A program made the translations under genes and the position numbers. This document shows positions 9,951 through 61,363 of a DNA stretch of 64,000 bases, piece after piece (within the stretch, counting starts at the first letter, position 1; every line of letters begins with the position of its first letter). The notes beneath the pieces were generated by a model. It worked only from the letters and a program-made list of their open reading frames with translations, ran no database searches and was not told where the DNA came from. Location of the stretch: assembly GCA_964106645.2 (NCBI GenBank), contig OZ067039.1; one strand, 5' to 3'. This DNA comes from Podarcis pityusensis (lineage: Eukaryota).

Positions 9951-10076
9951 GTCAAGACTGAAATCAGCGTCGAAAGCAAACACCAGACCCTCCAGGGACT
10001 GGCTTTTCCTTTGCAGCCAGAAGCTCAGCAGGCCATCCAGTTACTAAAACAGAAGAAGATCAATTACATCCAGCTG
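9951..10076 (+). CDS. TWF2: Twinfilin-2 coding exon ([12 protein letters not shown]...INYIQL), 126 nt
   Basis: Translation matches the twinfilin-2 linker and start of the second ADF-H domain. Boundaries aaacag| and |gtgaga. Confidence 0.96.
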
Positions 10077-10220
10077 GTGAGAAGTCCGTTTTTCACTATT
10101 CAGTTTGGCCTTTTGAACATCTCTTGGACTTCTGTGCAAGCCCTGCTTGTTCAAAGGCTCTTGGTTTCCCCCGAGCCAAATGTTGTTCTGAACTGTGTCC
10201 TCTTGCCTTTGTTTATACAG

Positions 10221-10371
10221 AAGCTGGACCTGGAACGGGAGACCATAGACTTGGTCCACACCAACGCCACTGAGATAGCAGACCTGCCTAAAAGAATTCC
10301 TCAGGATTCGGCCCGTTACCACTTCTTCCTGTATAAGCACTCTCACGAGGGAGATTATCTGGAGTCAGTTG
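10221..10371 (+). CDS. TWF2: Twinfilin-2 coding exon (KLDLERETI...DYLESV), 151 nt
   Basis: [20 protein letters not shown] motif. Boundaries tacag| and |gtaagc. Confidence 0.96.
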
Positions 10372-10673
10372 GTAAGCTCTGGCCAAATCTACAGCCTTGT
10401 CTTTGTTTTTTTTACAGACCAGAATTTTGCTTCTGTATCTGTGCCTGTCCTTTCTTTCTTTCTTTCATTCATTCATCCTTCCCTCCCTCCCTCTAGACAG
10501 GCATAGGAATTTATTTTCTGAATGTATCAAAGGGTTCTCCCCACCAGTGCAGATTCTTCTGTCCATGAATCTGGGGAACCGTGAGAATGTGCCTGTTAAG
10601 TCCTTTCTGATGATATGTATTTGCTCATGCAATTTCTCCAGTGCCAGAAGCCTCATAAGCCATCGGTTTAGTG

Positions 10674-10809
10674 CAGTGATGGCCAAACTTGGCCCTCCAG
10701 CTGTTTTGGGACTACAATTCCCATCATCCTTGACCACTGGACCTGTTAGCTAGGGATGATGAGAGTTGTAGTCACATAACAGCTGGAGGGTCAAGTTTGG
10801 CCATCACTG
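10674..10809. mobile_element. hAT-type MITE
   Basis: TIRs cagtgatggccaaact / agtttggccatcactg, internally palindromic, with perfect 8-bp TSD gtttagtg (10666-10673 and 10810-10817). Confidence 0.88.
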
Positions 10810-11033
10810 GTTTAGTGCAAAGAATTCCGATATAACCAATGCTAGAGCTTTTAGAAACAATACAGTACATGAAAAGGAAAATGCTCGCCTGCAAAACTTT
10901 TTCCTACTCTTTGTGTTCTGCACTTCCTTCCATTATAGTTGTTGCATGCATGGTTTTGCTCCCTATAGTTTTGTGGAATTAATCATGGCTGTGCCCAGGG
11001 ATGACTGATTGCCCTGTTTTCTCTTCCTTGCAG

Positions 11034-11155
11034 TATTTATCTACTCCATGCCTGGTTACAAATGTAGCATCAAGGAGCGCATGTTGTACTCCAGCTGCAA
11101 GAGCCGACTGCTTGACTCCGTGGAACAAGAATTCTGCCTAGAGATTGCAAAGAAG
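11034..11155 (+). CDS. TWF2: Twinfilin-2 coding exon (VFIYSMPGYKCSIKERMLYSSCK...IAKK), 122 nt
   Basis: Conserved ADF-H motif KERMLYSSCK. Boundaries ttgcag| and |gtaagc; phase is consistent with the previous exon. Confidence 0.96.
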
Positions 11156-11349
11156 GTAAGCCTAGGCTGCCGCCACCCCTTGACCCTTAAATTTATATTT
11201 GATGAAATCCTCCTCCTTCCATATGGACACTGGGAGCTGTGGATGGTGTGAAGGACTGGTGGGACAGTAGATGAAGATTCTTCCGGAGGAATTCCTCAGG
11301 ACCCAGTATATAACTTGTGGGAAGTGTCCCAACGTTGGTCTTAAAAACC

Positions 11350-11790
11350 TTAAGACCAATCATTAAAAAAATATTTAAATACTTTAGTAGCAGAAGATCA
11401 GCTAGAGAGGCAGTTGGGCTTTTGGATGACAAGGGTGTCAAATATGTGTTAAAGAAGGAAAATGAGACTGCAGGAAAGGTGAATGAATCAGCTGCATCTG
11501 TCTTCCCAGCAGAAGATGTAGGTCAAATCCTGGCCATCTAAGGAAACTGTGCCTTGTCCCTAAGAACAGATTGCAGATTGGAAAATTGCTGATTTTTAAA
11601 AAAAGGATCCAAGGGATTACAAGCCAGTTAGCTTAACTTGTGTTTTGGGGAAACTGGTGGAAACCATTATTAAGGATAGAATTACCAAGCATCTGAAAGA
11701 AGAGTTCTTTGCAGTCATGGGATGAGAGGACAGGTCCTCTCTTAGATGAGTAACGGCTTAAGGAAAAGGAAGCAGAGAATAGGAATAACT
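11350..11790 (+). mobile_element. Decayed CR1-type LINE ORF2 fragments in the last TWF2 intron
   Basis: Translations KIFKYFSSRRSAREAVGLLDDKG...KVNESAASVF and GKLVETIIKDRITKHL resemble CR1 ORF2. Confidence 0.65.
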
Positions 11791-12122
11791 GGGTAGTTCT
11801 CACAGTGGGGGGGGGGGGAATGGGAATGAAGGAACTCTTGGCCAAGAGAAATTTCAAAATTGCATGGCTGACCTACGAAATGATGAAAACCTCGTTGCTC
11901 AGATGAGGAGCTGTGATACTCAGATTCTGGAGATGAAAAGTAGATCTGGTTGGAAGCAACATTTTAGAGTTGCTGCTGGATGGTAGAAATGACTTTGGGG
12001 AAAGAGGTGGATGAGGGAGGTAAGAGTGGCATTACGAGGAAGACAGTCCTTGTCTCATCTGAGATGTAGGTGTTTTCAGAGGCCAAGGCAGAGGACTGCA
12101 TCTCCTCTTTCCTCTTTGCCAG

Positions 12123-12290
12123 ATTGAAATTGATGATGGAGCTGAGCTGACAGCAGAGTTCCTGTATGATGAGGTCCACCCCAAGCAGCATGCCTTCAAG
12201 CAGGCCTTTGCCAAACCCAAGGGGCCTGTGGGAAAGAGGGGACAGAAGCGACTTATCAAAGGACCAGGCGAGAATGGTGAAGACAGTTAA
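12123..12290 (+). CDS. TWF2: Twinfilin-2 last coding exon ([35 protein letters not shown]...GEDS*)
   Basis: Acceptor ctctttgccag; C-terminal capping-protein-binding tail FAKPKGP; TAA at 12288-12290. Confidence 0.96.
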
Positions 12291-19320: not shown

Positions 19321-22111
19321 GCTTTTGAAGGTAACTCTGAATATCAATCAGTTCAGCTGGAGCACTGGAAGGAGGTAAGGTGGCTTTGCAAATGAATGGA
19401 CTTCAAACTTTGAAGACACAGGTATGTTGCCTGGTTTGTTTGTTTTTAAGCAACACACACACACCAGATGTTTGCATCTTGATCCTATTGGTATTTAGCA
19501 AAACCTTCCATTCTCAGTCTTTTTGGGTCTTGTAGGTAATGACCTAGTTGCTTGAAGACTTTATCCACAAGACAGCCTGGACTCATAACAAATTTTAATT
19601 CCATCTCGTGGAAAATAATGTTCCCCTTAGATTACATAAATTGGTTATCCTTGGTTTATAAGGCCCTGGAACCATTTTTCATGATTACAGGGGACAGATG
19701 CTCTCTAAGGGGGGGGGGAGTCTGCTGTCTTCTAATGCAGGGATAAACACAACTTCTGTATTCTGACCAGGTTTTACACTCGCACACCATCATGTCCCAG
19801 AATGCCAGCCTTGTAATGGGTCCCCCACACCCCTTTCCCAGCTTTTGCCAATGTATTCTTGCAAAATCCAGGAAATGGAAGAATAATTCATTTGATGATG
19901 TTTGTATATCAGTGCCATCAAGGAAATGAACATACCTTTTTGGCCTTGTGTTGGAAAATATACACCTGACTTTCCCTGGCAATTGTGATCAAAAGGTGTG
20001 GTAGACCCCTCCCCTTCCCATGCCTGTTAAAAGTGGAAGCTAGGACTGGACCTCCTGTCTAATCCTTTGTTTTTTTGATCTCATAAGCATAGGACAGAAA
20101 AGTTTGACTTGTTAAGGCAGGTGGAGAAACTACTTCAACGTCTGAATGAATACTGAAAACTACATGGCGTATAACCAACCAAAAATAAAATAAATGGAAG
20201 CGCTAGCGATGGGATGAACGTGAATGCTTGCTATCTCAGCATTTCCCAGGCCATCTTTCATGTGTTACTATTCTCCCATCATGGCTTAAATGGATGATCA
20301 AATATTGTGTAAATCTAAGTTGCAGCTTTTAATCATCTGGAGGGCCACAAGGTTCCACTATCTAGATCAATCTTGCGGCTGATGCTTGGGGGAACATCTT
20401 ACTGCCCACCCCCTCTGCCTCTTTTCCTATATGTAGCAGCAGTCCAGGACCAAAGGATAAGGTGGTGGCAGCAAAGATCCTTCCACTCACTCCTCCTTTT
20501 CATGACCCTTTGTTTTGTTCCTGCTCCCATCCCTGCTGCATAGCACAGACAAAAATGGCTGGGCCTGGGCAGGGGGAGAATTGATAAAACCAGGAGAGGA
20601 CCTGCTGAAGGGAGCTGTGTCTGTGCTTCTCCTGCAACATTAGAGCTATGTGCCTGTGACTCTAGATTTGAGTTAACACCATGCACAGAGATTGCGATGG
20701 CGGTGGCAGCAGCTCCTGAAAACACTGCTATAGATGTTGATGAGCTACAAGTCTCATCAGCCCCAGCCAGCATGGTGAATGATCATGGATCTTGAGAGCT
20801 GTGGCCCTGCAAATGTTTCTGGACTACACGATCCCCATCCCTACAGGAAAGATGGGGAACATTTGCTATTGAGGGCTGCATTCTCTTACAGGTAAGTGTT
20901 CAGGGAAGCAGGGCAGCTGTGGGCAGGGCTGAAGCCAGCAGGGGAGAAGAACCACTTCTTTTCTTCCACCCTTTCTCCCTGCTCAGCTGGCTGCCGGAGA
21001 AGTAGATTGCTGTTACCAGGAGTCTAACCTGGTTCTCTTGCAGAAGGCCTTTGGAATTAGGCTAGGTCTGCAGGTGGCCCACCCTAGTCTAGATCATAGT
21101 TTCTCATCTGGTGCGCCACAAACTCCATTCAGGTTGTCAAACAGTTTAGAGTATCTGTATTTGGCTCTGCAATTGATTTATTCTTTGTGGCGACTGAGAT
21201 TAAGGCTTTTGACCTGAGATTACAGCTGACAAACATGACACCTGAGAGTACAGAACTTCGCTCAGAAAAACAGGCGCATCCATCGCAGTTGGAAAACAAA
21301 GACTACTCTTACAGTCTGTCAAGAACCTCCATGCACCCAATTTTTACATGGTCCATGGGTTTGTGGTAAGGGGGGGACGTCTGAGAGCCACTGATCTTGA
21401 ACAGTGGTGGTTATGGCGTTCAGTAGGTGACAATATTGAAATGCTAGGTCAATCTGTGTCACATGAAAAATATTTACTTTAAAAAGTTTTTTTAATCTTG
21501 CCCCCGCTTAATAAGAGAGGTAGCTTGACGTATACAAACGCACATCAGACAGACACACATCAGTTAAACAGTACCAATCACATTTGGAGGACTCCTATCT
21601 GGTTCAAGTAGGAAATTTCTTCTGTATAAATAATCTGCTTAAATACAGTACAGTGCTGTTAAAGGTGACTGTGCCATTATTTAACTGTTATAAATATCAG
21701 ATCCTGACTGAATTAACTTTTGTTTTTTTAAAAAAACAATTAGAAAACCACTGTTCTTGTCACAGTTTAGGAAAATATGCAATGCTGAATATTAAAGCTG
21801 CAGCTATGCTGGTGAAGAGAATTACAAAACTTTAAAAGAAAATCTTCAGTGTGTTGGAAGAATAGAATCCTGCATAGGTCATGGAAGTTGTTGGAGGGTA
21901 AAATCCATATGTGCTCACTTTTCCAGAGAAACACAACAAGGAGAAGGAACATCAGTGGGAGCCACAGATCACTTCACAACACCTTTGTCACCAAAAACCA
22001 TGCTTGTCTTGGTCTTCCCTTCTCACCAATATGCAGAGAGTCATGGGATCCACTTCACCCCTGTGGGCTTCACACAAAAAATCCACATGTATCACAACTG
22101 GTCCAAATGGC

Positions 22112-22504
22112 TCACAAACAACACCCCCACAGTGTGGACAGGAGCACCCCAAGAATTAACCAATCACTTGTTCGCAGCCAGAAGCCCCGCCCCCGGGCAG
22201 AGCAGCGCTCTCCATTCCAGCCCTGGTAACAGTGACACACAAACTCTTCTCTCATTTTGTCCTCCTGCCAACGTCTCAATTGCCCCCTCACCAGCACTCG
22301 GGTTTGGTTGCCCTCTGCTACTGTTTGGATCTGGAAGGTGTCAGGGCTGAGGTGCAAGTAGCTGTCCGAGTCCATCCATCGGCGAACGCAGCGGCCATGG
22401 CTGTTGCAGATCTTCTGGCTGCAAAGTTTGGTCGCCGTGGTCACGTTGACAATATAAGGGCCTAAAGTGCTATTCAGGTAGTCCTGAATCTTTAAGCAGT
22501 TGGT
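22112..22504 (-). CDS. Hyaluronidase last coding exon (EGF-like domain plus hydrophobic GPI-type tail)
   Basis: Acceptor tttccctcacag; TNCLKIQDYLNSTLGPYIVNVT...CSQKICNSHGRC...CHCYQGWNGERC, then hydrophobic WLILGVLLSTLWGCCL*. Confidence 0.93.
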   Translation of the reverse strand, partial: TNCLKIQDYLNSTLGPYIVNVTTATKLCSQKICNSHGRCVRRWMDSDSYLHLSPDTFQIQTVAEGNQTRVLVRGQLRRWQEDKMREEFVCHCYQGWNGERCSARGRGFWLRTSDWLILGVLLSTLWGCCL

Positions 22505-22684
22505 CTGTGAGGGAAACAGTTATTACAAGAGTTAACAAAGAGCTACAAATGCCAGAGAAAGTCTGTGATGCAAAACTAAATAAATCTATTAGAAAATACT
22601 GGAATTTAATTGCATTGGGGACTTGTTTATTCCTATTTGACTAGCACTTAAAATGTCCTAATTGAGGCTGGGGTCCTGTGGAAT

Positions 22685-22687
<3 letters not shown>

Positions 22688-22723
<36 letters not shown>

Positions 22724-23068
22724 TATTATTTATACCCTGCCCATCTGGCTGAGTTTCCCCAGCCACTCTGGGCGGCTCCCAATCGAATATTAAAAACAAT
22801 ACAGCATTAAATATTAAAAACTTCCCTAAACAGGGCTGGCTTCAGATGTCTTTTAAAAGTAGGATAGTTGCTTATTTCTTTGACATCTGATGGGAGGGCG
22901 TTCCACAGGGCAGACGCCACTACCGAGAAGGCCTCTGCCTGGTTCCTTGTAACCTCACTTCTGGCAATGAGGGAACCGCCAAAAGGCCCTCGGTGCTGGA
23001 TCTCAGTGTCCAGGCTGAACAATGCGGGGGGGGGGGCGCAACGCTCCTTCGGGTATACAGGACCGAGG
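22688..23068 (-). mobile_element. L2-type LINE 3' end with (AAT)n tail
   Basis: Same family as 6.6 kb and 42.7 kb; minus-strand translation AFSVVASALWNALP...FKRHLK is a typical L2 ORF2 C-terminus. Confidence 0.75.
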
Positions 23069-23612
23069 CCACAAAATCCTCACAAAGGGGTTGATTCTGC
23101 CTTAAAATTATTCCCTTAGCATTACACAGGAGGGTCTGTTACAGGAGAGGTTTTGTAGTTCATTCTGTAACTTAAATATAGCACCTGAACACTGGCTGCA
23201 TACCAATGTCTAGGCCAAAAGTTCTCATGACAGTGGCAAATCTGTATCGGGGTGCAGCATTTCAGACTGTAGGAAAAGGGTTGTTGTTGTTTTTAAATAC
23301 CCCTTGCATATCAGGAGCTAGGATGTCAAGGAAAAGACTAGTCTAGAAACCTTCTCCCTGACATTTTTTTTTAACATGCAAGGAATTTGTGTATCTGCAG
23401 ATGTGCATATAGAAGAGCAAGCAGCGCTGTGTGAAGTTAGAACATTTTAAATACCCCATGGTACTCTCTGCTAGTCTTTTAAGTAGCCAGTATACAAAGT
23501 AGAACCTCTGCTTCCTCCCTTTGCCCATCACCTGATGCTGAACAATAAACAAGAGAGATGAAAGAAAAGAATGAGTAAGAAAAGCAGCCTCAAGGCCTGC
23601 TATTAAAATTAC

Positions 23613-23702
23613 CCGGTTGCGAGAATACTCTGCGTCTCCCCAGAGTACAATGCCGTGAGCCCCCATGGCTGCAGCCTGCCCAATGGTGTGCACCAAGTCT
23701 GT
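23613..23702 (-). CDS. Hyaluronidase 90-nt internal exon (TDLVHTIGQAAAMGAHGIVLWG...)
   Basis: Short internal exon typical of HYAL genes, with the IVLWG motif. Boundaries gttctag| and |gtaatt, phase 0-0. Confidence 0.94.
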
Positions 23703-24664
23703 CTAGAACAACAGAAACCAGCACACATTAATTTGCAAGTTTACGGTAAATGCCTAAGCCGTTTTTGGTGGACGTCGGGCACCAGAATATATTTGGTATA
23801 ACGTTTCTCATAGAACTGTTCCCCATACATACAAAGATCTGAGTCAGTTGGCTTATAAAGAAAGGGAGCTTCTACATGAGTATAAATCATGATGCTCAAC
23901 TGAATAAACACAGTTACGAATCCGGGTTTGACTTCTCGTTCTGAAGCTTTGGGACAAAGCCTTCTAGATATTGTTGGACTTCAACTCCAGCCTGCATGGC
24001 CAGTGGTCAGTACAATGAGAGTTGTAATCCAATAAGATCTGGAGGGGCCAGGTCCAGGTTAGCCACCCTGCTTCAAGACATTTACCAGTATTTCTCTTTG
24101 TTCAACCATGAGGGCGACAAACTTACAGGCAATTCACACACTACTTGTATGAAATCAAGCCCTCTAATGCATGTTTTTCAGAAGTGGTCAGTACAGGCAG
24201 CAAGGGCTGGGAAAGGAGGGCCAAGAGTATTGGTAGCAATTCCCAACTATTCACTAAAGCTTTAGCAAGGGCACCATGTTCCACTGCTGCCTTCTCTTTG
24301 GTACTGCCCCCATGGAGAGGCGAGTTGCTGGCAACTTCTGGATCGCATCTCCTTTTGAATTAAAAGCAAAGACCACCAGGAATCTGATATTCGCTCGCAG
24401 TTTGGATATCCTCTATTCCTGCTATAGTCAAGAACAAACACCCAAGCTGTGGATTGTGTCCAGTGCTGCAATAATGGGACTCTGCTCAACACAATAGGAC
24501 ATCCTATCTTCTCGCTGCACGTGCCCCCCCCAAATGCTCTGGAAGGTCCTCTGGGTGGATTTTGATTGTGCACGGGGGCTGCAGAGGAAAGGAGAAGGAA
24601 GTTCGATTGAGCAAACAGAAGCCTGTTGCATGAGCAGAATGGCACCATTGTATACAGCCCAATA

Positions 24665-25208
24665 CAGTGGTGCCCCCCAAGACAAATGCCTCGCAAGACG
24701 GAAAACCCGCTAGACGAAAGGGTTTTCCGTTTTGGAGGTGCTTCGCAAAACAAATTTCCTATGTGCTTGCTTCGCAAGACGAAAATGTCTTGCGAGTTCC
24801 TGCGGGTTTTTTTCCCTCCCCCCCCTTTTTCCCAAGCCGCTAAGCCGCTTAACAGCTGATCGCTAAGCCGCTTATCAGCTGATCCGCTAAGCCGCTTAAC
24901 AGCTGATCGCTAAGCCGCTTATCAGCTGATCCGCTAAGCCGCTTAAGAGCTGATCCGTTAAGCCACTAAGCTGCTTATCAGCTGATCCGCTAAGCCGCTT
25001 AACAGCTGATCGCTAAGCCGCTTATCAGCTGATCCGTTAAGCTGCTTAACAGCTGATCGCTAAGCCACTTATCAGCTGATCCGCTAAGCCGCTAATACTG
25101 TAGCGCTAATCCGCTAAACCGCTAATGGGCTTGCTTCGCAAGACGAAAAAACCCACAAGACGAAGAGACTCGCGGAACGGATTCTTTTTGTCTTGCGAGG
25201 CACCACTG
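24665..25208. mobile_element. Tc1/mariner (Tigger/pogo-like) MITE with internal minisatellite
   Basis: TA|cagtggtgcc...ggcaccactg|TA termini and repeated subterminal cgcaagacg motifs. Confidence 0.85.
24837..25095. repeat. Minisatellite, about 10 units of 23-24 bp (cgctaagccgctta(ac/tc)agctgatc)
   Basis: Directly visible tandem units with no unique spacers. Confidence 0.92.
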
Positions 25209-25294
25209 TACGGCCACTGCTGATGCTCAAATGACTAGACAGGAATATCAGTCTCACTTGATGCAAATGACACTGCACAGTGTAAGGGAAGACT

Positions 25295-25296
<2 letters not shown>

Positions 25297-25339
<43 letters not shown>
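25297..25339. repeat. (GT)n microsatellite
   Basis: Visible in sequence. Confidence 0.95.
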
Positions 25340-25344
<5 letters not shown>

Positions 25345-26241
25345 TGGAGCATGAGTAGGAGAAAGTTTATTGTCAAACCATAAACCTAATCCATTTCACT
25401 TTCTGTGCAACAGAAGCAGTTTTTGTTATCCTGTAAAACAGTAAAATTTCCAGTCCTGAAGAGAGATGGAATGGCATTTCCCAACACAGCACACACACAC
25501 ACATTTTAAACATTTTTATGACTGAGTATTACACCACCATAGAAAATCAAGATTCCTAATGGATCTCTACTCCTGCCACAGGGCCCAAAATATTTGAGAA
25601 TTGCTCACGCAGACACACTTAATTGGAACTTAGTTGGAGGGGAAGAAAACCACGGCAAGCATGGCCAGTAAAGTGGTGTGAAATCTGCGTGCAGGTATTA
25701 AATGTTCAACATTAGTGCCATGTGTATCAGATTTAATAGTGTATGTTGAGAAGGGATGTTCACATTGTGAAGGAAGAATGTGGTGTGTGTGTGTGTGTAT
25801 TGGAAGTGTCATCTCTTCCAACCCCTCGTAATAGTTACATTTAAAAAAAAGGATGCCATTCATCGTGGAGTCACTTTAGATGAAGAGGGTATTGAAATGT
25901 TTGCAATAAATATTGTGTTTTAATCCAAAGGTCTCTCCCAATAGCCCTCTCACCCTCTATTTGGTTGCATCACCATGGCCAGGAGTGAAGTTGGTGGCAA
26001 CTCACACAGTCCTGAGATAAACTCAGAAATCAACTAACACCTTATCTCTTTTCCATTCCTCTTTGCCACAAGGCTGCTTTCTTCATTGGCTACCATTGAT
26101 CAAGAGCTCTAACTAAGACTCAGACGTGTTAGCAACCTTGCTGAGCAGTAAATCTACTGGGCCTCAAAGCATGGACACTACACACACACACACACGTGTG
26201 CAGTTTAGGAGCAAGGGCGGGGAAGAGGGCAAGTATCTCAC

Positions 26242-27250
26242 CTGAGACAACTCCTTCAGCGTGTAGGTGTAGAACGGCCTGGCATACACAAAGACAGGGA
26301 GGGAATGTTGAACAGAAGGCAGCTCCGCCACTCTCAGGGCTTCCCCCACTTTGGCCCACACAAACTTCTTCCCTTGCGGAGAGGTCCTCAGCGCCTCCTC
26401 CATGTAGATGGAAGGGTAGAGGGCTTTGCTGTTCTCCCAGAGCCAGATCAGCTCGTTGTTGCGCTGCACTTCCAGCGGAGGGCAGTGCCCTGTGAAGTTC
26501 TCAAAACTATCCAAATAGTGGTAGTTGTAGCACTCTGGGAAGAGGTAGTAGCCCCACCAGCCCTGGGGGCGGAGAGAGCGGGCCAGCTGCAGGGTCTTAG
26601 ACATGAATTCCTGGGCGGCCGTCTCAAATTCCCACTTAGCCTGCATTTCGGCCTGGGCGTCCGACAAATGGCGATTCTTTTGCCTGACGAGCTGGACAGA
26701 CATGTTCCGATAGACGTTTTTCTTGTCCCAGTTCCTGACCCACTGGGGCCTCCAGTTTTCCCAGTCTATCACAGAGAGGCCCGCAAAGGAGCTGGAGGGC
26801 ATGGCTGCCGTCAGGTCGCTCTCCATCTGCTCCAAGTGCCTTGTCAGGCTGGCGTTCTGAGGGCAGCCGCCGTTGACGGCAGTGGGCGGCACCGTTGTGT
26901 TCAAGTAGTAGGGATACAAGCCCAGCTGGTCGTAGTAGAAGATTGTGACGTTGCTGCCCACAAAGGCTTCCTGAGCATTCGCCAGGATGCTGTAGGAGTC
27001 CAAGCGGAGGGGCACCCCGTAGGCAGCCGAGCACCGGGCGGTTGGCGCATTCCAGGCCACCAGAAAGGGGCTCTCTTGGACAATGGGAGGCAAGGACGGC
27101 TTCAGGTTGGGAGACGCCACAGGCAGGTCTGGGAACAAGAGCAGGAGCAGCAGGAGGGCATGGCGGCTGAAGGGCTGGCACAGCCTCAAGGGTGCGGATG
27201 CCCACACGGGTGGCCCGGCTGAGCACGAGGGTGCTGTGTCGCATGCAATG
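26242..27250 (-). CDS. Hyaluronidase large coding exon (GH56 catalytic domain), SPAM1/HYAL4-like
   Basis: PFLVAWNAPT, IFYYDQLGLYPY, NGGCPQ, catalytic VIDWENWRP, WGYYLFPECYNY, ALYPSIY. Acceptor tctttcctgcag at 27251; donor CAG|gtgaga at 26241. Confidence 0.95.
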
Positions 27251-28659
27251 CTGCAGGAAAGACAAGAGGCCCGTCAAGAGTTACATGAGCATGATGCTTA
27301 CTGGCCAGGTATTCTAAAACAAACCCAACCGTATTCCAATCTGGAACTTCGGTTAACAGCTAACAAATCAGTTTCCCCATGCAGCAATGTTCGGAAGTCC
27401 CCAGGCGCACTTTGCTACTGCCGCGGGTCCAATTTGTGGGATGGAAGCACCCAAAATGCTAAGTAAACGGGTTAATGCTCACAAGGGCTATAGAAATCTG
27501 TACTGTCACACACCCCGAGGCAGTTATTTCAGTTGGTACAGTTATGGCAGTTAGTCTTTCATGTGAGAGCAGCTGAACTGTTGTTGTGCTGCTGTCTGTC
27601 TCAGAGTTAGTCAGTAACAGTATTTATATGTAAGATGTATTAGCAATGTAGGTTAACACCTACCTGTGTTGTGTATTTTAGTTTGCAAGTTGCAAGTACA
27701 TTAAGTACAAGTTATGTTGTTTAAACTTTAAAAGAGCGTGTCTTGGATAGTTTTGGGGGAAAGCAAAGTGATTAAAGGATCAAACGCCCCAGGCTGTCTT
27801 CCACATAACTCTGTAAATGGGAGTTTAATTTCCCCACAATTGCAGGCCCAGTTGCAGAAATCTACGTGGAGATTTCTGGACACCAGGTTGGCAATTGACA
27901 TCTCCATCAAGCCAGCTAACTTGTGTGCAGCAAAAGACAAGCATCTTGTTCTTCTGTGCAAACCATGAACCCTTTGCTGGGCATCTTAGTCCTCCATCAT
28001 CCCATCAAGCAAAGTCAGTGCAGGGCTGAATGCAGATATATTTGACTGCGTTGCAGCCTTTCCACAAGTCACCCAAATGGAACTCAGATCACAGTTTAAA
28101 AACTTCTGCCTTAGCCCACAGTTAATACTATTTCCATTTCCACCGTGTGTGTCTTTCTCCTTCTTGCATATTGGGGACAAATGAACTGTTGTAAGAGCAA
28201 GATACAGTCAAGCAAAGTAGTTGAGATCATAGAATCGTAGAACTGTAGCATTGGAAGGGTCATATAGAGTCCAACCCCCTGGCAAACAGACAATCGCAAC
28301 CTAAGTTTAAGGTGCCATTTAGCGCAACTGAGTTTCTAACACTGCACAGAGTGTGACTGCTCCCCAGTCATCCCAAGGCTGATCCATTAGGGCAAGTGAG
28401 GCACTGCCCCACCACACTTAACCGCTGCCTGCCTCCTTATTTACAAACAGTCTAATGGTTGACTCTGGCTGCCAGCAACCTCCTTGCTCTTAGAACCCAG
28501 ACAGAGGAAGATGGGGCAAAATTAGAATTAGTTTGCTCTGCCTGTCTTTGGCCCTGGCTCAGCCTACTGTTGGCCACCCTGCCTCCTGCCTCACTAACTA
28601 GTGCTATATATGTAAAGCCTTCTTTATCATAGATGTTTTCATCCGACAGCCACATTACA

Positions 28660-28780
28660 ATCATAGAACTGTAGAGTTGGAAGGCAGTGAATGCAAACCT
28701 CCAAGGAAGGGGAGCCTGACCACCCCTTGTGGGAGTCTGTTCCACCGGCAAACAGCTCTTGCCGTCAGAAAGTCCTTCCT
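28660..28780 (-). mobile_element. CR1-type 3' end fragment
   Basis: atcatagaactgtagagttggaagg tail; minus-strand translation FLTARAVCRWNRLP. A similar tail lies at 28225-28285. Confidence 0.6.
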
Positions 28781-29235
28781 TTCGCTTGTGAGCATCACAG
28801 AGCCGCCGAAGACTCCAGCTGCAAAAAGCACAACCTTGCCCCTTCCCTTGTTTTTGTCTGACATCCCAGGGGTCAGGGGTCAAAAGCAGACTGGGTAGGC
28901 AAGCTCAGGACAATGGGTGAGTGGTGGCTTTTTAAGGGCTCCATTCTCTCCAAATCAGGTCTGAAAGGAAAGCTGCCTTTTTGTTAATTGCCCGGCTGCA
29001 AGAGGTTTCCCTCAAGCTACGTAATTTGCAGAGTAATTCAATTTGCAGCATACATGAGGGAGGGAAGGAGAGCTGCTGCTGCTGCTGCTGCTACTCCTTA
29101 GAGGCCGCCCAGCTCCAGGGTCACAAATCTGCTCCCAGTGCTATTTATCCAAGTGTAGGGTAAATGGTGGCTTCGCTTTGCTGTGTCGCTATAGCCTTGT
29201 CCATTTTGTCATTAGCAGTTTTCTCTGTTTAAAAC

Positions 29236-29375
29236 AGGGATGGGGAACCTGCATTAGCAAGACTCCAGCTCCCATCAGCCCCAGCCAGCATGACTAGTGG
29301 TCAGGGATGATGGGAGCTTGAGTCCAACAACCACCTTTGGAGTCTGACCTAGAGGGCACAGGTTCCCTAGCCCAG
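29236..29375. mobile_element. Degenerate hAT-like MITE (related copies near 8.45, 15.0, 20.8 and 24.0 kb)
   Basis: cagggatggggaacct...aggttccctagccc ends and the ctcccatcagccccagccagcatg core. Confidence 0.55.
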
Positions 29376-32300
29376 TTTATAATTTAATCCATTGATTTAA
29401 AACAAAAAACAAAACAAAACCCTGGTGCAACGTTTGGGTTTATAAAATAACATGGATATACATTCTGAATCGAAGGCCCCAGAAGCTCCAGTTTGTTGTT
29501 GGCACATTCAAGGTGCTCCCTCCCCCTTCTACCACTGCAAGCATCCCGTTCTCCCCTTCTCATGCTCCCAGCTCAGTGAGGCCAATTCCACCAGGAACTG
29601 AGTAGTCACATTAACCTCATTCTGCATAGGCCACAGAGCAGACATCTGATGATTACAGCGTTCAATCATTGCTGACCTGCATTAAAGCCTAGTATTTCCC
29701 TGGAGGTGAAGCGCTTCTTAGTCAAATGCATTACCCACTAATGTCCAGAGCTCTCAGAAAACCTTGTATAATCTGGCAGGGTAGATGCAGTGTGAAAGCC
29801 AGAAAGTTCGTAACATTTGATAAGATCGGGGCGAGGAACAAAGTGCCTCCATGTGAGCTTTTGCAGAGCGGGGAATCAGAGGCTTATTGAGGAACTGGGG
29901 GGGGGGGGCAGAATATCAACCAGAATGAAGGCTAGAAAGAGGCCTCTGGGTGGGTAGGAGCCAGCGGAGCGTGCTCTGCACATGGGCAGAGGACGCAGGG
30001 AGGGAGGCTGGGAAGGTGGCACAGAGAAATCAAAGGCAGTGGTGATGGTAATGCAAGGAGGTCCCGGTACAGGGAGGTCCCGGTTCACATCCCACCTGAC
30101 TGCTGAGCTAGCCATGTGGCCATTCCTCATCCCTGAGTGCTACTCCACAGGGTTGTTGTAAAGGAGGAGGAAAGGCAGGATGAAAAGTGATGATGCCATA
30201 GTGCCTGGAAGGAAAAATCAAAACCTTCTTTTCCTCTTCCTGTCTCCTCCCTATTTATTCTTCCCATAATCTCCAGCAGATCTTTCATCCAGACCTGAAA
30301 AGGCCCTGAAGGTGTATTTGCATATTTAGAAGGGGAAATGCCAAAAAAGCAATCATAATGGGAGTTTAGTGGCTTTTTCAGAGAAGATGACTAGAAAATA
30401 GGAAGCAATAGCCAAACCACCAATTAACTTACTTGGGGAGCAGGGTGCCTGTAAATGGGCCTTCTTTTTTCCTGCTTCTGTCTGTGGTTTTGATCTCCCA
30501 GATAAATCCTATAAGCCACTCAGCATCTCTCCAGCCCCTGGATCTACAGTGAAATCAACAAAAATCACAAGCTCGAAGCAGCGCCAACGTAGTGTGCCAT
30601 GCTGCCCTCTGTTTAAGGACAGCAGCACCACTTTCACCAAGCAACCCAGGAGCAGAATAAGCTTCCCCCCCCAAGCTGTAAAGGAGAAGTTGCTTTTATC
30701 TGAACCCAAGCTTCAGAAGCACTAACTAGACCTCCAGGGAAGATTAAATGGCAACACTGGATACAGAGCTAAGATTTCCTTCTGGAGAGTCAAAGCTCTC
30801 AGTGCAGCAGATTGTATGGGAGGGAGGGGGGTGGAGTTTGTTCCCAGAAGAAAGACTTCCCTCCTCCTCTCTAAGCAGTGGGGATGGAGAACAAACTATA
30901 ATTAAATACTACCTAGCCTTCGGTCTCAATGACATAGCAATTCACCCACTTGACTCCCAAGACATAATTTACATCTCAGGAGTGTTCCTAAACAGTGAGG
31001 GATCTACCAGAGGGATCTACTCCAGGGAAGCCATGAAAACAGCATTTAAATACTTGCCAGCTAGTTTCTTCTCCTAACCAGGGTAGCGTATGTGATTCAA
31101 TCCCATGCACCAATTTTATTTAATAATGCACTAATGTTTAATTATAGTGCTTTCCCCCCTGAAATGTTCAAAGTGCTTCTCATGTATCTCAGTAATCCTT
31201 ATAGCGCCCCTGTAAGTGCTGGCATTATTATCCCCATTTCGCAGATTGAAAGCGAAGACTGAGAGGAGGGCATGCCTAAGGCCACCCAGTGAGCTCAGAG
31301 CTTAAGGAGATTTCCTGCTCGTAATTCATGCTCTTGCTACTGTAGATGCCAGCTCACTTAAGTTCTGAGAAGGCTGCTGGAAGGATGCCAGGCAACTTTG
31401 TGGCAGAGCGATAAACAGGATAACATGGTGCTCCCTAGTGTGCCAATGCATACATATGCATGTTCATATGTCTTACATGGGTAAACAGGTATTCGGGGAG
31501 GGGATGGATTTGTGATGCTACTCTTGGGATCTTTACTGGAGAGGGCAGACAGAATTGCATTTGTTTGATAACCTGGCTTAATTTAGGGGAAAATTTTAAC
31601 ATAGACTAATCTTGGTGTGCTTGTTCCAGAGAGCCAGCAATAACCACACTGCTGCATAGTTGTGATATTTATTTGTAAATCAACAGAGGTTTAAATGATA
31701 ATGTGACAATATAAATGAGTTAAAAGCAGCATCGCGGCTTGAAATGCCACTGCAGAAACATGCCAAAAGGAAAGGGTTGGTAATGCCTCCACTGCCAAGC
31801 CCATCACCTCTTCCTGGACCACTCAATTCCTGTTGCAGAAATGGATCATGAAAGAGACTAGAGGCATGTAATTGCAAGCCAAAGATAAGACTTTGCTACA
31901 GGAAAGTGAAAGAACCAGAAAAGGGGGTCAGGGGGGTTCACATGAAAAGTTTTAGTTTCCCTGTCTTGTAAGAGACGGATTACTTGTGTACTTCCAAGGT
32001 GGAACCTACACACATATAAAAAATGCTGTGAAAATGCTTTAAAAAAACAACACGTTTTGAAAAATACATTGAATTTGGCATAGCTCATGGTCGCCATCTT
32101 GTGTCACATTTGTATATTGCACTTTACAACATATTCACACCAACTTATTTGCAGCTGTATAGCTGAGTCCCAAGTCTTATGTGGAGTTGATGGGAACTGA
32201 ACCGGAGACCTTCAGCACAGAAAGCAGATGTTCCACCACTGAGCCGTGGCCCCTTCTCTGTGTGCAGTTACAAGAGCAGCCAGAAGGACTTGCTCCCAGT

Positions 32301-33894
32301 GTAACAGAAGTGGCGCCCATGGGAACACTTTTCTGGGACTAACAGCAGCCTGGGGGAGAGGAAGAACCTTCATTCGGATCATAGAACTGGAGATGGTGGT
32401 CATGGATAGAGCCCACCATGCTGTAATCCTGGCGCGTCCCCCACACCAGCTGTTTTAAGGTTTTGCACAAACATGCGCCTTCAATTGACAGTTTCAGCAT
32501 CATGCGCACTTCCATCTCGAGGCGAAAGTTCCCATGCCAATCATCGTTAATTATAAAATTGCTATTCTACAAAACGTGCATAGGGCTGTGCCAAAACCAT
32601 TGTTGCAGGAGTCTACAGTGAAGTCATCCCTAAATCCTGGCCTGTGCCAACTCTCCCCTTTCAAACAAATTAATGAGAAAATTTATTCTGAGAAAAATAA
32701 GAGGCCTTGTGATGGAATGGCAATTGTGTTACTGGTGCCATAGCAGCAAACCAGCCTTTTGTGCTAATGTAACTTCCTGGGCCAAGTTTACAGTTACAAC
32801 ACAACCTACAGGTTGTCATAATAATTGCTCTGCCACAATGGCCATTACCGGTAACTATTCCTGCCAATTCTGCGTGGGTCCACTGACCCTCAGGGGTCTC
32901 GTGTTGAGGCACTTAGTTCTGATGGCTGTTAAGTGGATCCCATACAATGATATATAGGAGGATGTGTGTTCAGCATCAGTTGCTCTTTAGAGAATGGTAG
33001 CATCAATGCTCTCGGGGCAGCTATTGATTCTTTAAGCTGTAAATCCAGGTGGAGTTTCTGGAGACACTATGACAGATACAGAAGACTGCCTCCTGCATGA
33101 TCCCATATTCCATAAAGCTCTTAGCTCATCGGACATTGCCCTCAGCCATCCTTTTAAAAGAATTAATATTGCATTTGTGCCTGAAAATACGAGAGCATCA
33201 TGCTGAAAACTAGGTAACAGTAAGTATTCTCAGGTGTAGAATATAGCAAAAATGTTAACATCTGAACGGTATGAAAACTTTGTGAAGAAACTTTGTAAGA
33301 AAAACAAAAACAACGCCCCCCCCCCCGTGCTAGGGTAGCATCCTGCCTGCCAGATGAGTGCTTTGAAATTGCTTACTAAAGAATAAATTAGGACATGGTC
33401 CAGCAAAGGTTAAGGACTCATGCAACCACACATGTCAAACAGAGCAGGATCACTGGTGTAATGCAAAGAATAAAGAAAAAACAAGATATATTTGATGCCT
33501 TTGAAAACATTTTGCTTTCTTTCTCGGTTTGCTCCTCTCACCACCATCACATTCTATTTATTCTTCACACGTTGTCAGCATTTTCTGGGCTTGCAAGAAT
33601 ATAAATAACGAATATTCAATTATCAATGTTTTAAGCAAGGGATGCATTGAATTCCATGAAAGTGAGGGGAGGCACACTTAAGTAACGCTAAGCATCTCCA
33701 TGTCTGTAAATGAGGGTCCTGTGAAATTTGTATTTTATTTTCATAGATTCTGGTCTCCCTCTGAAGTAAAAGGCAGAGAAATTAACACTACAAAACAGGA
33801 ATTTACTCACAACAATGCTACAGTTTAAACATTTAAAACTGCTTTTAAAAATTGGAGCTGTTTACCAAATTGTTTATAGGAAGATGCAAGTAAG

Positions 33895-33896
<2 letters not shown>

Positions 33897-33926
<30 letters not shown>
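33897..33926. repeat. (GT)n microsatellite
   Basis: Visible in sequence. Confidence 0.95.
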
Positions 33927-33928
<2 letters not shown>

Positions 33929-34598
33929 GTAGGTAAGAATTGTTCTCTCTCATTCTTATGCATTTCATGGCAAATAAGAGGCAGGCTATTTTACCTCAGT
34001 CATTTAACAATTGCATTTCAAAGGGAAGGAAGTCACATAAAATTCCAGCAGCTCTACAAATGACAATTATCCATTAAATAAGCAGTAGGACGAGCCACAG
34101 AAAGAATGTGATCAGAAAGTGAGACATAGATTCTCTTTTCTGGATGTTCCAACATTAGACTATAGGAGTAGAGGGAAAGTACAGATACTTTAAAAGCAAG
34201 GAAGCAGCAATTTTCCAAAGGCTTCAGATATCCTGGCTGCTTGCATCAGAAGCAGAAAGCTCTAATTCGCCAATCTCCTTCTGTGTCTTCATTCCATCAG
34301 CCACTTTTAGGTATGAAGAGAATGGGAACCCACTCTGATTTTAAAAGGCCGGCTTTCAGAAGACTAAAGAGCCTGTGGCAAACTTGCATCTCTGCAATTC
34401 ATGACTTCAAACCTCCCCCACCCCCCAATGTCCATGTGAGCGGTTGGATTAAAGATGAGGCTCTGGCTGCTGCTAGCTCTGACAGGTGAATTTCCAGCGC
34501 AGCCCTAATGGAATTCCCACCTCTTTTCCAAAGAACAATACAAAAACAACTGCTCAGCCAAACAAAAGAAAACATGTGGGGGGGGGAGGGGCACCTAC

Positions 34599-34618
34599 CT
34601 GAAGAGTTTTGCAGCCAT
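34599..34618 (-). CDS. Putative first coding exon of the hyaluronidase (MAAKLF + 2 nt)
   Basis: ATG GCT GCA AAA CTC TTC AG|gtaggt. Phase 2 joins in frame to the exon starting at 27250, which has no in-frame ATG ahead of its hydrophobic signal segment. Lies in a GC-rich region. Confidence 0.6.
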
Positions 34619-47949: not shown

Positions 47950-48950
47950 AACAGGTTGCTGCGATGCCCTCCCCCCCCCCCCCCGTTGATTTTGCCAGTT
48001 GATTCCAGAAGCAAACTGAGGGGTGGGCTTCATTCGTGTCTCCGTCTCTCTCTCCCGCCCCTCACCCCAGCCCCTTTCAGTCGCCGCGATCTTGAGAGGC
48101 GATAAGGGAGTTGCTGCTCTCGGGCTAAGAGATGCAAATGTCAAAGGGCGCGGCGCTAGCGGACCTACACACCTGGATCTACACCCCAGGAAGGGAAAGA
48201 CCCGGGGAACGGGGAGAAGGGGCTCCTTGGGAAAAGCAGCCCCGGAGAAGGCAGGAAGGAAGTGGAAATGCAGGCGGAGGAAGAGGAAGAGGTCTCCAAA
48301 AAGTTGACCCACCACGAAGCAACGGTCGAAGCCCACCGAAACCCATTTCAACAGGTAGAACAGCAACCCCCTGGATTTGAACTCAGCTCCCAAGAGGACG
48401 CTGGTATTTGTATTGCCCGAAGTCTTTGCAAACAAAGGAGTCACTGAGAAACTCGAGAGAGGAAGGGAGCGGGGAGGTTTCCGCTCCCAACAGATAGGAA
48501 GAAGAGAGGACCGGCTTGGGCTTCCCAACGCCGCGACGCAAACATACCTTTGCCGCGTCCTCATCTCTCCCCGTCCAGGCATCCAGGGCTGGACCGCTGC
48601 CTGAGTCCCGCCGGATCCCCCGGCGCCGCTTACCTGGGGGAGGAGGGCACAGGACCGCCCCTCACCTGCTGGCCCCGCCCACCCAGCACCGGCCCCGCCC
48701 ACCGCCTCACCTGGCCGCGAACCCTGCCTGCTCACGCCCGGGAGTCGTCAGAAGTTGGTGCTTCTGGGAGCAGCTCAGCGATGTCTTCACCTGTGACTCA
48801 TCTCTGAGTAAGCAGGAAAAGGCTCGTGAACTCGAGGGTGGGACATGGGGAAAGGGAGGGAGGCAGTCACAGAAGAAGATCAAGGGGGAAATAAGGCGGC
48901 AATTGCAGGTGCCTCAGTGGCTTTTGCCGGGGGTGGTTGCTTCCTAAAAT
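47950..48950. promoter_or_regulatory. CpG island / probable promoter
   Basis: Dense CpG; two GGCCCCGCCCAC GC boxes (48671, 48691); minus-strand splice donors including CAG|gtaagc at 48633. Confidence 0.65.
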
Positions 48951-58381: not shown

Positions 58382-58542
58382 TTATGCAGTCGCTGACACA
58401 AGTTTGCTCATTCCACTGAAGTAGGATCTTTCCCTTTCACTCATTACTTCAAAGTGAAGGGGTCGCCTGCAGAAGTTGCATTCAGCAGAGGAGTGTGGCT
58501 TCAGCTCCAGGCCAACTTCCTTCCAAGTAGCTAACAGATTCT
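58382..58542 (-). CDS. ALAS1: 5-aminolevulinate synthase 1, last coding exon
   Basis: [38 protein letters not shown]...ATA*; acceptor tcttgcag. Confidence 0.96.
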
Positions 58543-59137
58543 CTGCAAGAGAAGAAGGAAACTCTGGTAATTGCAGAGACAAAGCAAACACTCTTGCTAA
58601 TCCATAGCATGAAGACACAGAACAACTAATACAAGGTTCATCCTTATTAGCTTTCTTTAACACAGTAGCCTTGAATTTTAAAACACTAATGACCCCGTTA
58701 TGTTCAAAGGTTTCATGGCCCTTTGCCTGTTACAGGTTTACTAGGAGAAACAATCTCAATTCTGCTAGACAATATTCCCTTTTGGAGGAAGCCTCCAAAA
58801 CCCTACACAAATCTGAAGTGGAGTCTCTAAAATGGTTGGATGGAGCCTTGTATGCCTCCTTCCAGCAACTCCTGCAGCCAAGCTGGTGCCAAACATATTG
58901 CTCAACTTTCCTTTGGATCACATCAGTGAGGCCGAGAGGGGGTTTTGTCATCTGGGCAGTCCAGGACCTCCATACACACTGCCCAGGCTTGCACCACGAA
59001 GAGATCATTTCAGTTTGACTTCACTCCCAGAGATGAACTCCATTGTCTCTTGAGACAGATGGATGCCAACAACTGTTTAGTAAGCTTGTGTGTGTTAGGA
59101 CAGAGATAGCAGATTTACTGGCACTAACCCAGTACTT

Positions 59138-59487
59138 GAGACGCGGGTGGCGCTGTGGGTTAAACCACAGAGCCTAGGACTTGCCGATCAGAAGATCGGC
59201 GGTTCGAATCCCCACGATGGGGTGAGCTCCTATTGCTCGGTCCCTGCTCCTGCCAACCTAGCAGTTCGAAAGCATGTCAAAGTGCAAGTAGATAAATAGG
59301 TACTGCTCCAGCGGGAAGGTAAACAGCATTTCCGTGCACTGCTCTGGTTCGCCAGAAGCGGCTTAGTCATGCTGGCCACATGACCCGGAAGCTGTACGCC
59401 GGCTGCCTTGGCCAATAAAGCGAGATGAGCACCACAACCCCAGATTCGGCTACGACTGGACCTAATGGTCAGGGGTCCTTTTACCTT
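59138..59487 (+). mobile_element. Sauria (Squam1-type) SINE in the last ALAS1 intron, antisense to the gene
   Basis: Full head and tail with 12-bp TSD taacccagtact (59125-59136 and 59488-59499). Confidence 0.9.
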
Positions 59488-60266
59488 TAACCCAGTACTG
59501 TGTTACTGGCACAGTGCTATGGAGTCTACAGGTACTCATGGCTTTCTTTAAAGAAGCAAGAAAGCTGCACATAGCACAGCTGCAGTTTGCCTGTTGGAGA
59601 CTCATGCAATTTAATAGGCAAGGACTCAGCTAGGGTGAGGATCTGTTGATGTACCATGTTTAGCCTTATCATTTGACATAATTATTAAAGAAATATCCAG
59701 CTGTACAAACAAGTGGAACTAAGCCAGCACAGTGCTTCCTTGATACAGAAACTTTTGGAGAGCAATCTAACTCGATCACAAAGAAACCTTACGGGTCTCA
59801 AATTCGGTTTTATATATTGCACTGTCTAAGTTTATGTACATTTTAGGAAGTGGTACTTGCAGTCACCCATCCTGCTTCTCGTGTTTATGACAGTTCAACC
59901 TTAGGGACAAAGCACATTTTTTCTGTAGGGGCAAACCTATTTGAGCATTAATTACTTAGGGGATTCCAGTTACATGTGGGGGTACTGCAGGGCCATGCTC
60001 CACATAAAAGCCTCCCCATGCAGGGTTCAAAGTCACATGGGGGAGTCTGAGTGTAGAGTGGGCTCCTAGCTTCAGCCTTCAACCTTAATGAGAATAAGGG
60101 GTGTTGTGGATACGACAGCCCTACTCTCTGCCACGCATGATTGGAATTGTGCTAGTAGTAAGTGCCCAAATAGTTCTTTAGCACTACAGATTTATCAGGT
60201 TTTCATTGTAAATGTTAGAAAAGTGTTATGAAATGTTGCTGTGCTTTTATGTCTTTGTTCACTCAC

Positions 60267-60429
60267 CAATAAAATAGTTCATCATTTGTGGTGTATGATG
60301 TGGGGTAGGGGCAATACGTAGCAGCTCTTCCCCACGTGGCACAGTGGGGTAGTTTATCGCTTGGACGTAGATGCTATGCTGGCTCATCATTTTGTCACAG
60401 ATCTCAGTATTTTTAGCAGCATCTGAAAC
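60267..60429 (-). CDS. ALAS1: ALAS1 coding exon (163 nt)
   Basis: [26 protein letters not shown]; canonical splice sites. Confidence 0.96.
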
Positions 60430-61094
60430 CTGAGGCAGAAAGATTATTTCTAGACATGTTTCCAAGACTGTTAAAATACATTATTTGCACCACCAAGGAC
60501 CAAGTAGGTGTTCCCATGACCAGACTCCAAAAGTTATAGTTACAAAGACCTGTACTTAGACACTGCCAGTTGCATGAACTATTAACCAGTAAGATACAAG
60601 CTAAAACTAGGAGGCAAGTGCTTTGGGGTGGGGTGGAAGCGGAAAAGGCAGGGAGAACGAAGCACATGTGTGTGGTCCAAGGCCAGTGATATACTCCTGT
60701 ACACTTCTCTTGTGGTGGAGACCTCAGGGTATCCCCATCCCGGGTTCCTTCAACAGACCATGTGGGCTTCATAACAATCTCTTCCCTAATCAATGTCAGA
60801 TTGCTGTATTCTGTGGGTCCTGGGCCGGAAAGCAAAGAAATGCAGGTTGCCATCAATCTCCTACTCCCTCAATCTGTTTTATGCATAAATTTAAACTGAA
60901 ACAGTGGGGCGGGGGGGGGGATTGCTGAAGTCATAACCATTAGGATGCCTCTTGGGGAATTGGGGAAGATGCCATATTCTACAGAGTTCAACAAGAAAGA
61001 ATGTAAATGCATACAGACTTAATTATGAAATTTCTGTGGGGCATAAAAGAACAATGGAGTTTTTATGTACTGGATTAAATCCTTAAATATTTAC

Positions 61095-61363
61095 CCTGAT
61101 AGGAATGATGTGACTGGGACAGTGCACTACAGGGAAGCCAGTATCCATCAGCATCTGTCTCATGAGTTTAACATTGCGTTGATGTTGGCGGCGAAGGACT
61201 TGCCCCTCTGCACTTTTGAGGATTCTCACAGACTCGAGAGCGCCAGCTAAGAGCATGGGGGGCAGGGACGTTGTAAAAATAAAGCCAGCAGCATAGGAAC
61301 GGACAGTGTCTATCAGAGAACTTGTACTGGCCACGTAACCCCCTACACAGCCAAAAGCTTTGC
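61095..61363 (-). CDS. ALAS1: ALAS1 coding exon (269 nt), includes the PLP-binding lysine of GKAFG
   Basis: KAFGCVGGY...[15 protein letters not shown]...SHIIPIR; canonical splice sites. Confidence 0.97.

Follow-up and report, generated by a model that had tools for sequence, protein, structure and literature searches.

The vertebrate hyaluronidases are described as six genes that arose through the doubling of a three-gene cluster, an account based on human, mouse, chicken, Xenopus, and zebrafish (PMC3581078, PMC11275217). By the count of Csoka and Stern, zebrafish, platypus, and primates have six genes, chicken has five, and Xenopus four; mouse has seven, the rodent Hyal5 being the seventh (PMC3581078). 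In the active site of these enzymes, which is lined by aromatic residues, Glu131 donates the proton (PMC9686885). Tyr247 is shared by every HYAL except HYAL4 and plays a part in the recognition of hyaluronan without determining it; HYAL1 and SPAM1 cleave chondroitin sulfate A (CS-A) about as well as hyaluronan (PMC4030862). HYAL2 is anchored by glycosylphosphatidylinositol (GPI), and its activity is weak and disputed despite an intact site (PMC11275217). Here we describe a hyaluronidase gene of the lizard Podarcis pityusensis, carried on the minus strand of a 64,000-nucleotide stretch of contig OZ067039.1 (assembly GCA_964106645.2; this whole stretch is called the window below). The gene is probably an intact member of a separate, ancient vertebrate subfamily closest to HYAL2, likely encoding a GPI-anchored cell-surface enzyme predicted to cut both hyaluronan and chondroitin.

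The phylogenetic analysis was based on protein sets made up of the best 120 of 659, of 170, and of 218 passing proteins, plus members from cluster look-ups. In a FastTree analysis of 382 exon-2 rows (373 of the 374 proteins, one being too short), the Podarcis gene fell within a clade of 105 rows with a support of 99. In a 62-row tree chosen to cover each group, the same clade (16 rows) received 100/99, next to clades of HYAL2 (100/98), HYAL4 (100/100), SPAM1 (98/95), HYAL6 (100/96), and SPAM1 plus HYAL4 (99/98), and it was joined with HYAL2 and three cyclostome rows at 98/94. The original prediction, made by a model from the letters of the window, had called the motifs more SPAM1/HYAL4-like, which the union with HYAL2 does not support; in approximately unbiased (AU) tests, uniting the clade with SPAM1 or with HYAL4 was rejected modestly (p-AU 0.037 and 0.033, respectively), and a split from HYAL2 placed after the sharks was clearly rejected (p-AU 0.0007). 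In the tree, the gene also stands outside the HYAL6 clade and outside the HYAL1+HYAL3 clade, the latter with few reference rows. A stronger argument for a separate gene than the AU tests is its coexistence with a SPAM1-clade gene in Monodelphis, Sminthopsis, Dromiciops, Tinamus, Gopherus flavomarginatus, Heptranchias, and Pristiophorus; in Latimeria and Acipenser ruthenus it occurs alongside HYAL2. The proposal of a separate paralogue, and not a named HYAL relocated one-to-one, was thus borne out by the gene's own clade, in a GH56 phylogeny including a venom hyaluronidase, and by the coexistence in seven species. The gene is the orthologue of no named human HYAL.

The clade comprised 51 cluster representatives: 21 from the squamate group (4 of them assigned by nesting among squamates), 8 turtle, 3 palaeognath, 2 marsupial, 4 caecilian, 1 lungfish, 1 coelacanth, 5 non-teleost ray-finned fish (members include gar, bichir, and sturgeons), and 6 shark. 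Snakes keep the gene (a 35-member cluster), and so do marsupials (14 of 14 members of its marsupial cluster). With a range from sharks to marsupials, the gene is as ancient as had been supposed. The supposed loss in mammals was drawn too wide, because marsupials keep the gene; what stands is a loss that concerns placentals and perhaps monotremes. A transposition in reptiles, the other origin put forward, is rejected by the orthologues in sharks, fishes, and marsupials. Among the matches listed, none of the 47 representatives that are named or cluster with a named protein came from a placental, monotreme, neognath, crocodilian, tuatara, frog, salamander, or teleost, groups that all appear in the match lists through other HYALs. 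These absences come from word-indexed searches with the best 120 matches each, for which recall in the common length range was 36 of 37 (best 120 of 659) and 36 of 44 (best 120 of 218). Since tetrapod members score far above the list floor, the tetrapod absences carry some weight, those in frogs and monotremes only provisionally, whereas the teleost absence is weakly tested.

Copy number and completeness varied in a few species. Two copies were seen in the gecko Sphaerodactylus (P0009 and P0024, on different chromosomes) and two in the caecilian Microcaecilia (P0030 and P0034, on the same chromosome), one of each pair evolving faster. The Struthio copy (P0304) is annotated as a low-quality, partial protein; in some palaeognaths, decay of the gene or a poor assembly may be at work.

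Judged indirectly from equal source-sequence lengths, the gene shares a chromosome or scaffold with HYAL2 in Zootoca, Varanus, Tiliqua, Carettochelys, Latimeria, and Acipenser ruthenus; the same indirect placement puts HYAL1-like genes on its chromosome or scaffold in three sharks, and sets it on a sequence apart from SPAM1 in the six species allowing comparison. The gene may have arisen when a HYAL2-like gene was duplicated locally on the HYAL1/2/3 chromosome, ahead of the split of sharks and bony fish, and would later have been lost in placentals, neognath birds, crocodilians, frogs and salamanders, and perhaps teleosts. The tree, which is unrooted and thinly sampled, pairs HYAL4 with SPAM1, HYAL1 with HYAL3, and HYAL2 with the studied gene, and because these pairs form within clusters and not across them, a simple block doubling fits poorly. 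The gene represents an ancient and as yet unnamed seventh HYAL lineage whose nearest relative is HYAL2; it ranges from sharks to marsupials, and its putative function is drawn from family features. Being of the same age as HYAL2 and equally conserved, a seventh lineage kept in marsupials alters the six-gene account. It also makes the loss of a matrix-degrading enzyme on the placental line open to experiment, with opossum and anole as laboratory-accessible species.

No description of the subfamily or the locus was found in the literature searched, whose coverage left out most subscription papers, and PMC13709620, PMC8410860, PMC8075977, and PMC12254123 added nothing on the subfamily. The Lacerta genome paper mentions HYAL1, 2, and 4 alone (PMC6381762), the stingray paper reports HYAL1, 2, and 6 and points out that shark HYALs have been mislabelled (PMC6315956), and the habu paper gives one venom and five non-venom Hyal genes (PMC6062510). 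The habu count would fit HYAL6, HYAL1–4, and the gene studied here, which may already stand unnamed in the supplementary tree of that paper (PMC6062510). RefSeq and GenBank entries of the gene carry conflicting automatic names (hyaluronidase-4-like, -1, -1-like, -2, and -2-like), and reptile or marsupial studies of an automatically named “HYAL4”, “HYAL1”, or “HYAL2” may therefore concern this gene.

The gene is read from four coding exons of 20 + 1009 + 90 + 393 nt, that is 1512 nt encoding 503 aa with a single terminal stop, and its introns are GT-AG throughout; the undisrupted structure given in the original prediction was confirmed by translation, by the intron boundaries, and by spliced contigs. 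Its features in the window are as follows.

48548..48582, minus strand: exon 1b, alternative first coding exon (35 nt), located by tblastn of the N-termini of RefSeq 508-aa isoforms, 12/12 identical (P0250)
34599..34618, minus strand: exon 1a, first coding exon with the ATG (20 nt), GT donor, in frame
30433..30543, minus strand: optional in-frame 111-nt exon, located by tblastn of RefSeq 540–551-aa isoforms, 37/37 identical (P0245), with AG/GT boundaries
26242..27250, minus strand: exon 2 (1009 nt), encoding the predicted signal peptide and the larger part of the GH56 barrel, with D169, E171, Y242, Y289, and the clade-specific C136
23613..23702, minus strand: exon 3 (90 nt), carrying W364, equal to bases 795–884 of contig X1 record 3
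22112..22504, minus strand: exon 4 (393 nt), encoding the barrel end, the EGF-like domain, the hydrophobic C-terminal tail (predicted GPI signal), and the stop
21546..22111, minus strand: 3′ untranslated region, to the limit of RNA-like contigs; polyadenylation-like hexamers start at 21496 and 21182

Contig X1 record 3 (1973 nt), from a related lizard, joins exons 2, 3, and 4 exactly at the predicted boundaries, and in contig X5 record 9 (2163 nt), likewise from a run of a related lizard, the matches to exons 2 and 4 are separated by a gap of 90 nt. Both are guessed to be RNA, the record bearing no RNA label, and were taken as spliced product because the contig skips the introns. The gene is real, and splicing of exons 2–4 is confirmed in a related lizard. 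Exon 1a lies outside the cover of these contigs, and its N-terminus is matched by 503-aa RefSeq isoforms of four lacertids and by Pogona and a snake. Exon 1b has a GT donor, joins exon 2 in frame, and lies in a CpG-rich setting (observed/expected CpG 0.61 at 48–49 kb); it is outside the cover of RNA-like contigs from four runs, and the optional 111-nt exon has essentially no RNA cover. Through exon 1b and the optional exon, the gene extends further than the four-exon span. The first 78–82 nt of the spliced contigs found no match in 19000–36500 or 47700–50200 (36.5–47.7 kb lay outside the comparison), and raw reads X23 and X24 gave about 1x exon cover with no listed junction, too thin for use. 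The closest named proteins are those of other wall lizards, the 503-aa isoforms of Podarcis muralis and P. raffonei showing 10 and 15 differences, respectively.

The encoded protein is a GH56 member by profile, by catalytic residues, and by a barrel fold followed by an EGF-like domain. An isoform 98% identical to it (P0248) matched Pfam GH56 (PF01630) with 460.6 bits (E 3.5e-138, cut-off 23.2) over profile positions 1–334 of 335, and exon 2 of the window alone scored 381 bits. The motifs DWE (169–171), GYYLFP (240), PSIY (286), and VLWG (362) are in place, and D169, E171, Y242, Y289, and W364 align with one constant offset to human HYAL1 D129, E131, Y202, Y247, and W321, so that the catalytic D-W-E and the positioning Tyr and Trp residues are all intact as had been noted. 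The EGF-like domain also named there is matched by six C-terminal cysteines, although the Pfam match of 19.5 bits falls just under the cut-off of 21.5. The model of the P. raffonei orthologue (P0001; pTM 0.77, mean pLDDT 77.8) matched human HYAL1 2PE4 (E 5.6e-43, TM-score 0.91 by target) as well as PH-20 (9JUB listed); the ESM Atlas returned generic hyaluronidase clusters only.

Residues D169, E171, R174, W181, Y242, S287, and Y289 are invariant in all 105 clade rows, which include isoforms and are not independent. Ten columns are near-diagnostic for the clade; the clade-specific residues include C136, W213, W238, and Q299, and C136, present in 93 of 105 clade rows against none of 277 other rows (aliphatic in other HYALs), is probably buried and unpaired. 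The protein further shows a hydrophobic stretch at 37–47, nine N-glycosylation sequons, and a hydrophobic tail at 488–503. Such a short tail after the EGF domain was found in 76 of 81 scorable clade rows, in 37/40 of HYAL2, 36/74 of HYAL6, 0/5 of HYAL1, and 0/2 of HYAL3, a comparison that leaves out SPAM1, in which the pattern went unmatched in 55/55 rows. Identity to the Podarcis protein was 80% in Anolis, 76% in a turtle, 68% in opossum, 60% in coelacanth, and 54% in a shark, and the HYAL2 controls gave 67% for lizard–marsupial, 63% for coelacanth, and 53% for sterlet. Because these identities match the HYAL2 control and follow the species tree, the gene appears about as constrained as HYAL2, and a conservation equal to that of HYAL2 argues for a lasting somatic role.

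A GH56 profile search of the genome gave 13 matches from 25 candidates, which resolved into seven loci: HYAL3, HYAL1, and HYAL2 at C2:73.0 Mb (HYAL2 at C2:73.06 Mb), the studied gene at C2:75.79 Mb, one at C2:109.85 Mb, and HYAL6 and HYAL4 at C10:59.0 Mb. The labels come from the tree and named matches, for HYAL1 also from the PDB, and for HYAL3 from position and tree only, the reference set holding no named HYAL3. The lizard genome carries HYAL1, 2, 3, 4, and 6 apart from the studied gene, which lies 2.7 Mb from the HYAL1/2/3 cluster and so, as anticipated, outside the canonical clusters. A turtle SPAM1 query of the genome returned only the seven GH56 loci, and the 80 kb downstream of HYAL4 held no further GH56 copy. 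Among the 55 SPAM1-clade rows (from the best 120 of 170, proteins >499 aa), which do include turtles, birds, a crocodile, marsupials, and sharks, there was no named squamate. The HYAL6–HYAL4 cluster itself, at C10:59.03–59.15 Mb, was seen without SPAM1, and SPAM1 may have been lost in squamates.

Compared with the named hyaluronidases, the gene is nearest to HYAL2, the GPI-anchored GH56 enzyme of the human 3p21.3 cluster, with which it shares the barrel, EGF-like domain, and hydrophobic tail, an equal rate of change, and the chromosome in the six species checked. It differs in that the two clades have been separate since before the shark split, in being 49.5% identical to the lizard's own HYAL2, in lying outside the cluster, in its extra C136, and in not being found in placentals. 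SPAM1/PH-20 shares the GH56 fold, the Tyr247 equivalent, a GPI-type topology (predicted for the studied protein), and the best PDB sequence score, but belongs to another clade on another chromosome, shows 46–47% identity, and coexists with the gene. HYAL4, a chondroitin sulfate hydrolase of the same fold and the source of the gene's automatic name, carries Ala, Gly, or Thr in place of Tyr247 in all but one of its 59 rows (58 of 59), whereas the studied clade has Tyr in 105 of 105, and the lizard has its own HYAL4 on C10. The earlier remark that HYAL4 lacks the Tyr of PSIY is therefore correct, but this residue is no pointer towards SPAM1, since every subfamily except HYAL4 keeps it. HYAL6, which includes the snake venom hyaluronidase, has the same catalytic set and about 49% identity, yet forms a separate clade (100/96), and the lizard carries two HYAL6-type genes elsewhere. 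Human HYAL1 (PDB 2PE4) is the best structural match with aligned catalytic residues, but HYAL1 rows have no hydrophobic tail (0/5), and the studied protein is 46% identical to the lizard's HYAL1.

In GH56 enzymes the substrate's own acetamido group serves as nucleophile, and the chemistry of the studied protein is probably ordinary for the family. The hydrophobic stretch at 37–47 would lead the protein into the endoplasmic reticulum, and the tail at 488–503 would be exchanged for a GPI anchor near residues 475–480, leaving a glycosylated enzyme facing outward. E171 (HYAL1 E131) is predicted to protonate the beta-1,4 bond, with D169 and the aromatic Y242, Y289, and W364 holding the N-acetyl sugar. 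At the cell surface, the enzyme would then break the beta-1,4 bonds of hyaluronan and chondroitin, and Y289 would favour a hyaluronan substrate over a HYAL4-like, chondroitin-only enzyme.

Other explanations were weighed against this reading. It is very improbable that the gene is a squamate SPAM1, or HYAL4, moved from its cluster. A genome with no SPAM1 among its seven GH56 loci or in the 80 kb downstream of HYAL4 would suit a relocated SPAM1, as would the best PDB sequence match to PH-20 (393 bits vs 368 for HYAL1), and the RefSeq name hyaluronidase-4-like would suit a relocated HYAL4. However, no HYAL2 was among the PDB results, the true HYAL4 sits on C10, SPAM1 and HYAL4 form a clade of their own (99/98), the AU tests rejected a union of the gene with either of them, and the presence of both genes in turtle, tinamou, marsupials, and sharks refutes the relocation of SPAM1. 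We give hardly any credence to a reptile-specific transposed copy or a venom-type hyaluronidase: the distance of 2.7 Mb from the cluster and the retention of the gene in snakes would be compatible with either, but orthologues in sharks, fishes, caecilians, and marsupials refute it as origin, the Ovophis venom hyaluronidase falls in HYAL6, and the kept introns rule out a retrocopy.

Readings that accept a separate subfamily and differ on its role are less remote. It is unlikely that in squamates the gene stands in for SPAM1 as the sperm-surface hyaluronidase; SPAM1 is missing from this genome, no named squamate stands among the 55 SPAM1-clade rows, and the predicted GPI topology fits, but the gene is equally conserved in groups keeping SPAM1, so that its main role should be older, and the SPAM1 rows come from one list (proteins >499 aa, best 120 of 170). 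Unlikely, too, is a protein resembling HYAL2 where catalysis matters least, with weak or tightly controlled hydrolase activity and a main role in binding or shaping the glycocalyx. The disputed activity of its nearest relative, HYAL2 (PMC11275217), would agree with such a role, and C136, W213, W238, and Q299 point to separate constraint outside the catalytic set; against it, the catalytic positions are invariant in 105/105 rows over >400 million years, although HYAL2 keeps them as well, which makes them a poor discriminator. A bolder combination, which we consider speculative, would have seven lineages in the first jawed vertebrates, the seventh lost independently in the human/mouse, chicken, Xenopus, and zebrafish lines, which would explain why the field missed it, having its own substrate or pH preference tied to clade-specific residues (C136, W213, W238) and serving as the sperm-surface hyaluronidase in SPAM1-less lizards and snakes.

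Several points count against the preferred reading of a separate, HYAL2-related surface enzyme. The tree covers 284 exon-2 columns only, without an invertebrate outgroup and without a shark HYAL2 row, HYAL1 and HYAL3 are thinly sampled in it (9 and 3 rows), and the AU rejections of the SPAM1 and HYAL4 unions are close to 0.05. One listing missed 8 of 44 known members, gar and bichir among them. In another listing, gar reached 324 bits where the floor stood at 316, so that a teleost member evolving faster could have gone unlisted. The setting between TWF2 and ALAS1 was read in this genome alone. The predicted GPI signal and signal peptide follow from hydropathy and family likeness, and the n-region ahead of the hydrophobic core is long (~36 aa). 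By analogy, an intact site may not mean strong activity, since HYAL2, the nearest relative, is weakly or disputedly active despite one (PMC11275217).

The genes flanking the hyaluronidase gene in the window are the following.

9990..12290, plus strand: 3′ exons of TWF2 (the gene begins further left), best PDB match twinfilin-2 (E 7.5e-17, vs twinfilin-1 1.7e-13), stop at ~12290
58382..62648, minus strand: 3′ exons of a 5-aminolevulinate synthase (ALAS) gene, upstream of the hyaluronidase gene; only ALAS2 matched in the PDB

The gene had been placed between TWF2/TLR9 and ALAS1. TWF2 is supported by its PDB match and an ALAS gene is present, which we take to be ALAS1 from the human synteny; TLR9 did not hold. 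The window contained no TIR domain (all 27 matches in the genome lay outside it) and no stop-free frame between TWF2 and the hyaluronidase gene is longer than 190 codons, so that TLR9 does not lie between TWF2 and ALAS (12290–58382). The hyaluronidase gene presumably occupies the place where TLR9 lies in human, TLR9 being a human landmark only. The gene may have moved later to the TWF2–ALAS1 interval in some lineage. A head-to-head promoter common to the hyaluronidase gene and ALAS1 was considered and dropped, both genes being on the minus strand.

Some minor observations were made on repeats and on the remaining GH56 loci. The long first intron contains a LINE-type reverse-transcriptase fragment (Pfam RVT_1, E 4e-13) at 40860–41282 on the plus strand, and intron 2 holds a dispersed repeat at 24660–25210 with inverted ends, an internal tandem array, and a very deep read pile-up. 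Downstream of HYAL4 (L015:4400–6100), two overlapping frames, recombinase and hydrolase-like, look like a DIRS-type retrotransposon, a label we assume. The locus at C2:109847190–109853880 is a second HYAL6-type gene outside both clusters, fast-evolving, with three coding exons and open frames. Its product has many basic residues and is probably secreted, judging from the absence of a hydrophobic tail, and it has His at the Tyr247 position, the sole such case in 97 HYAL6 rows.

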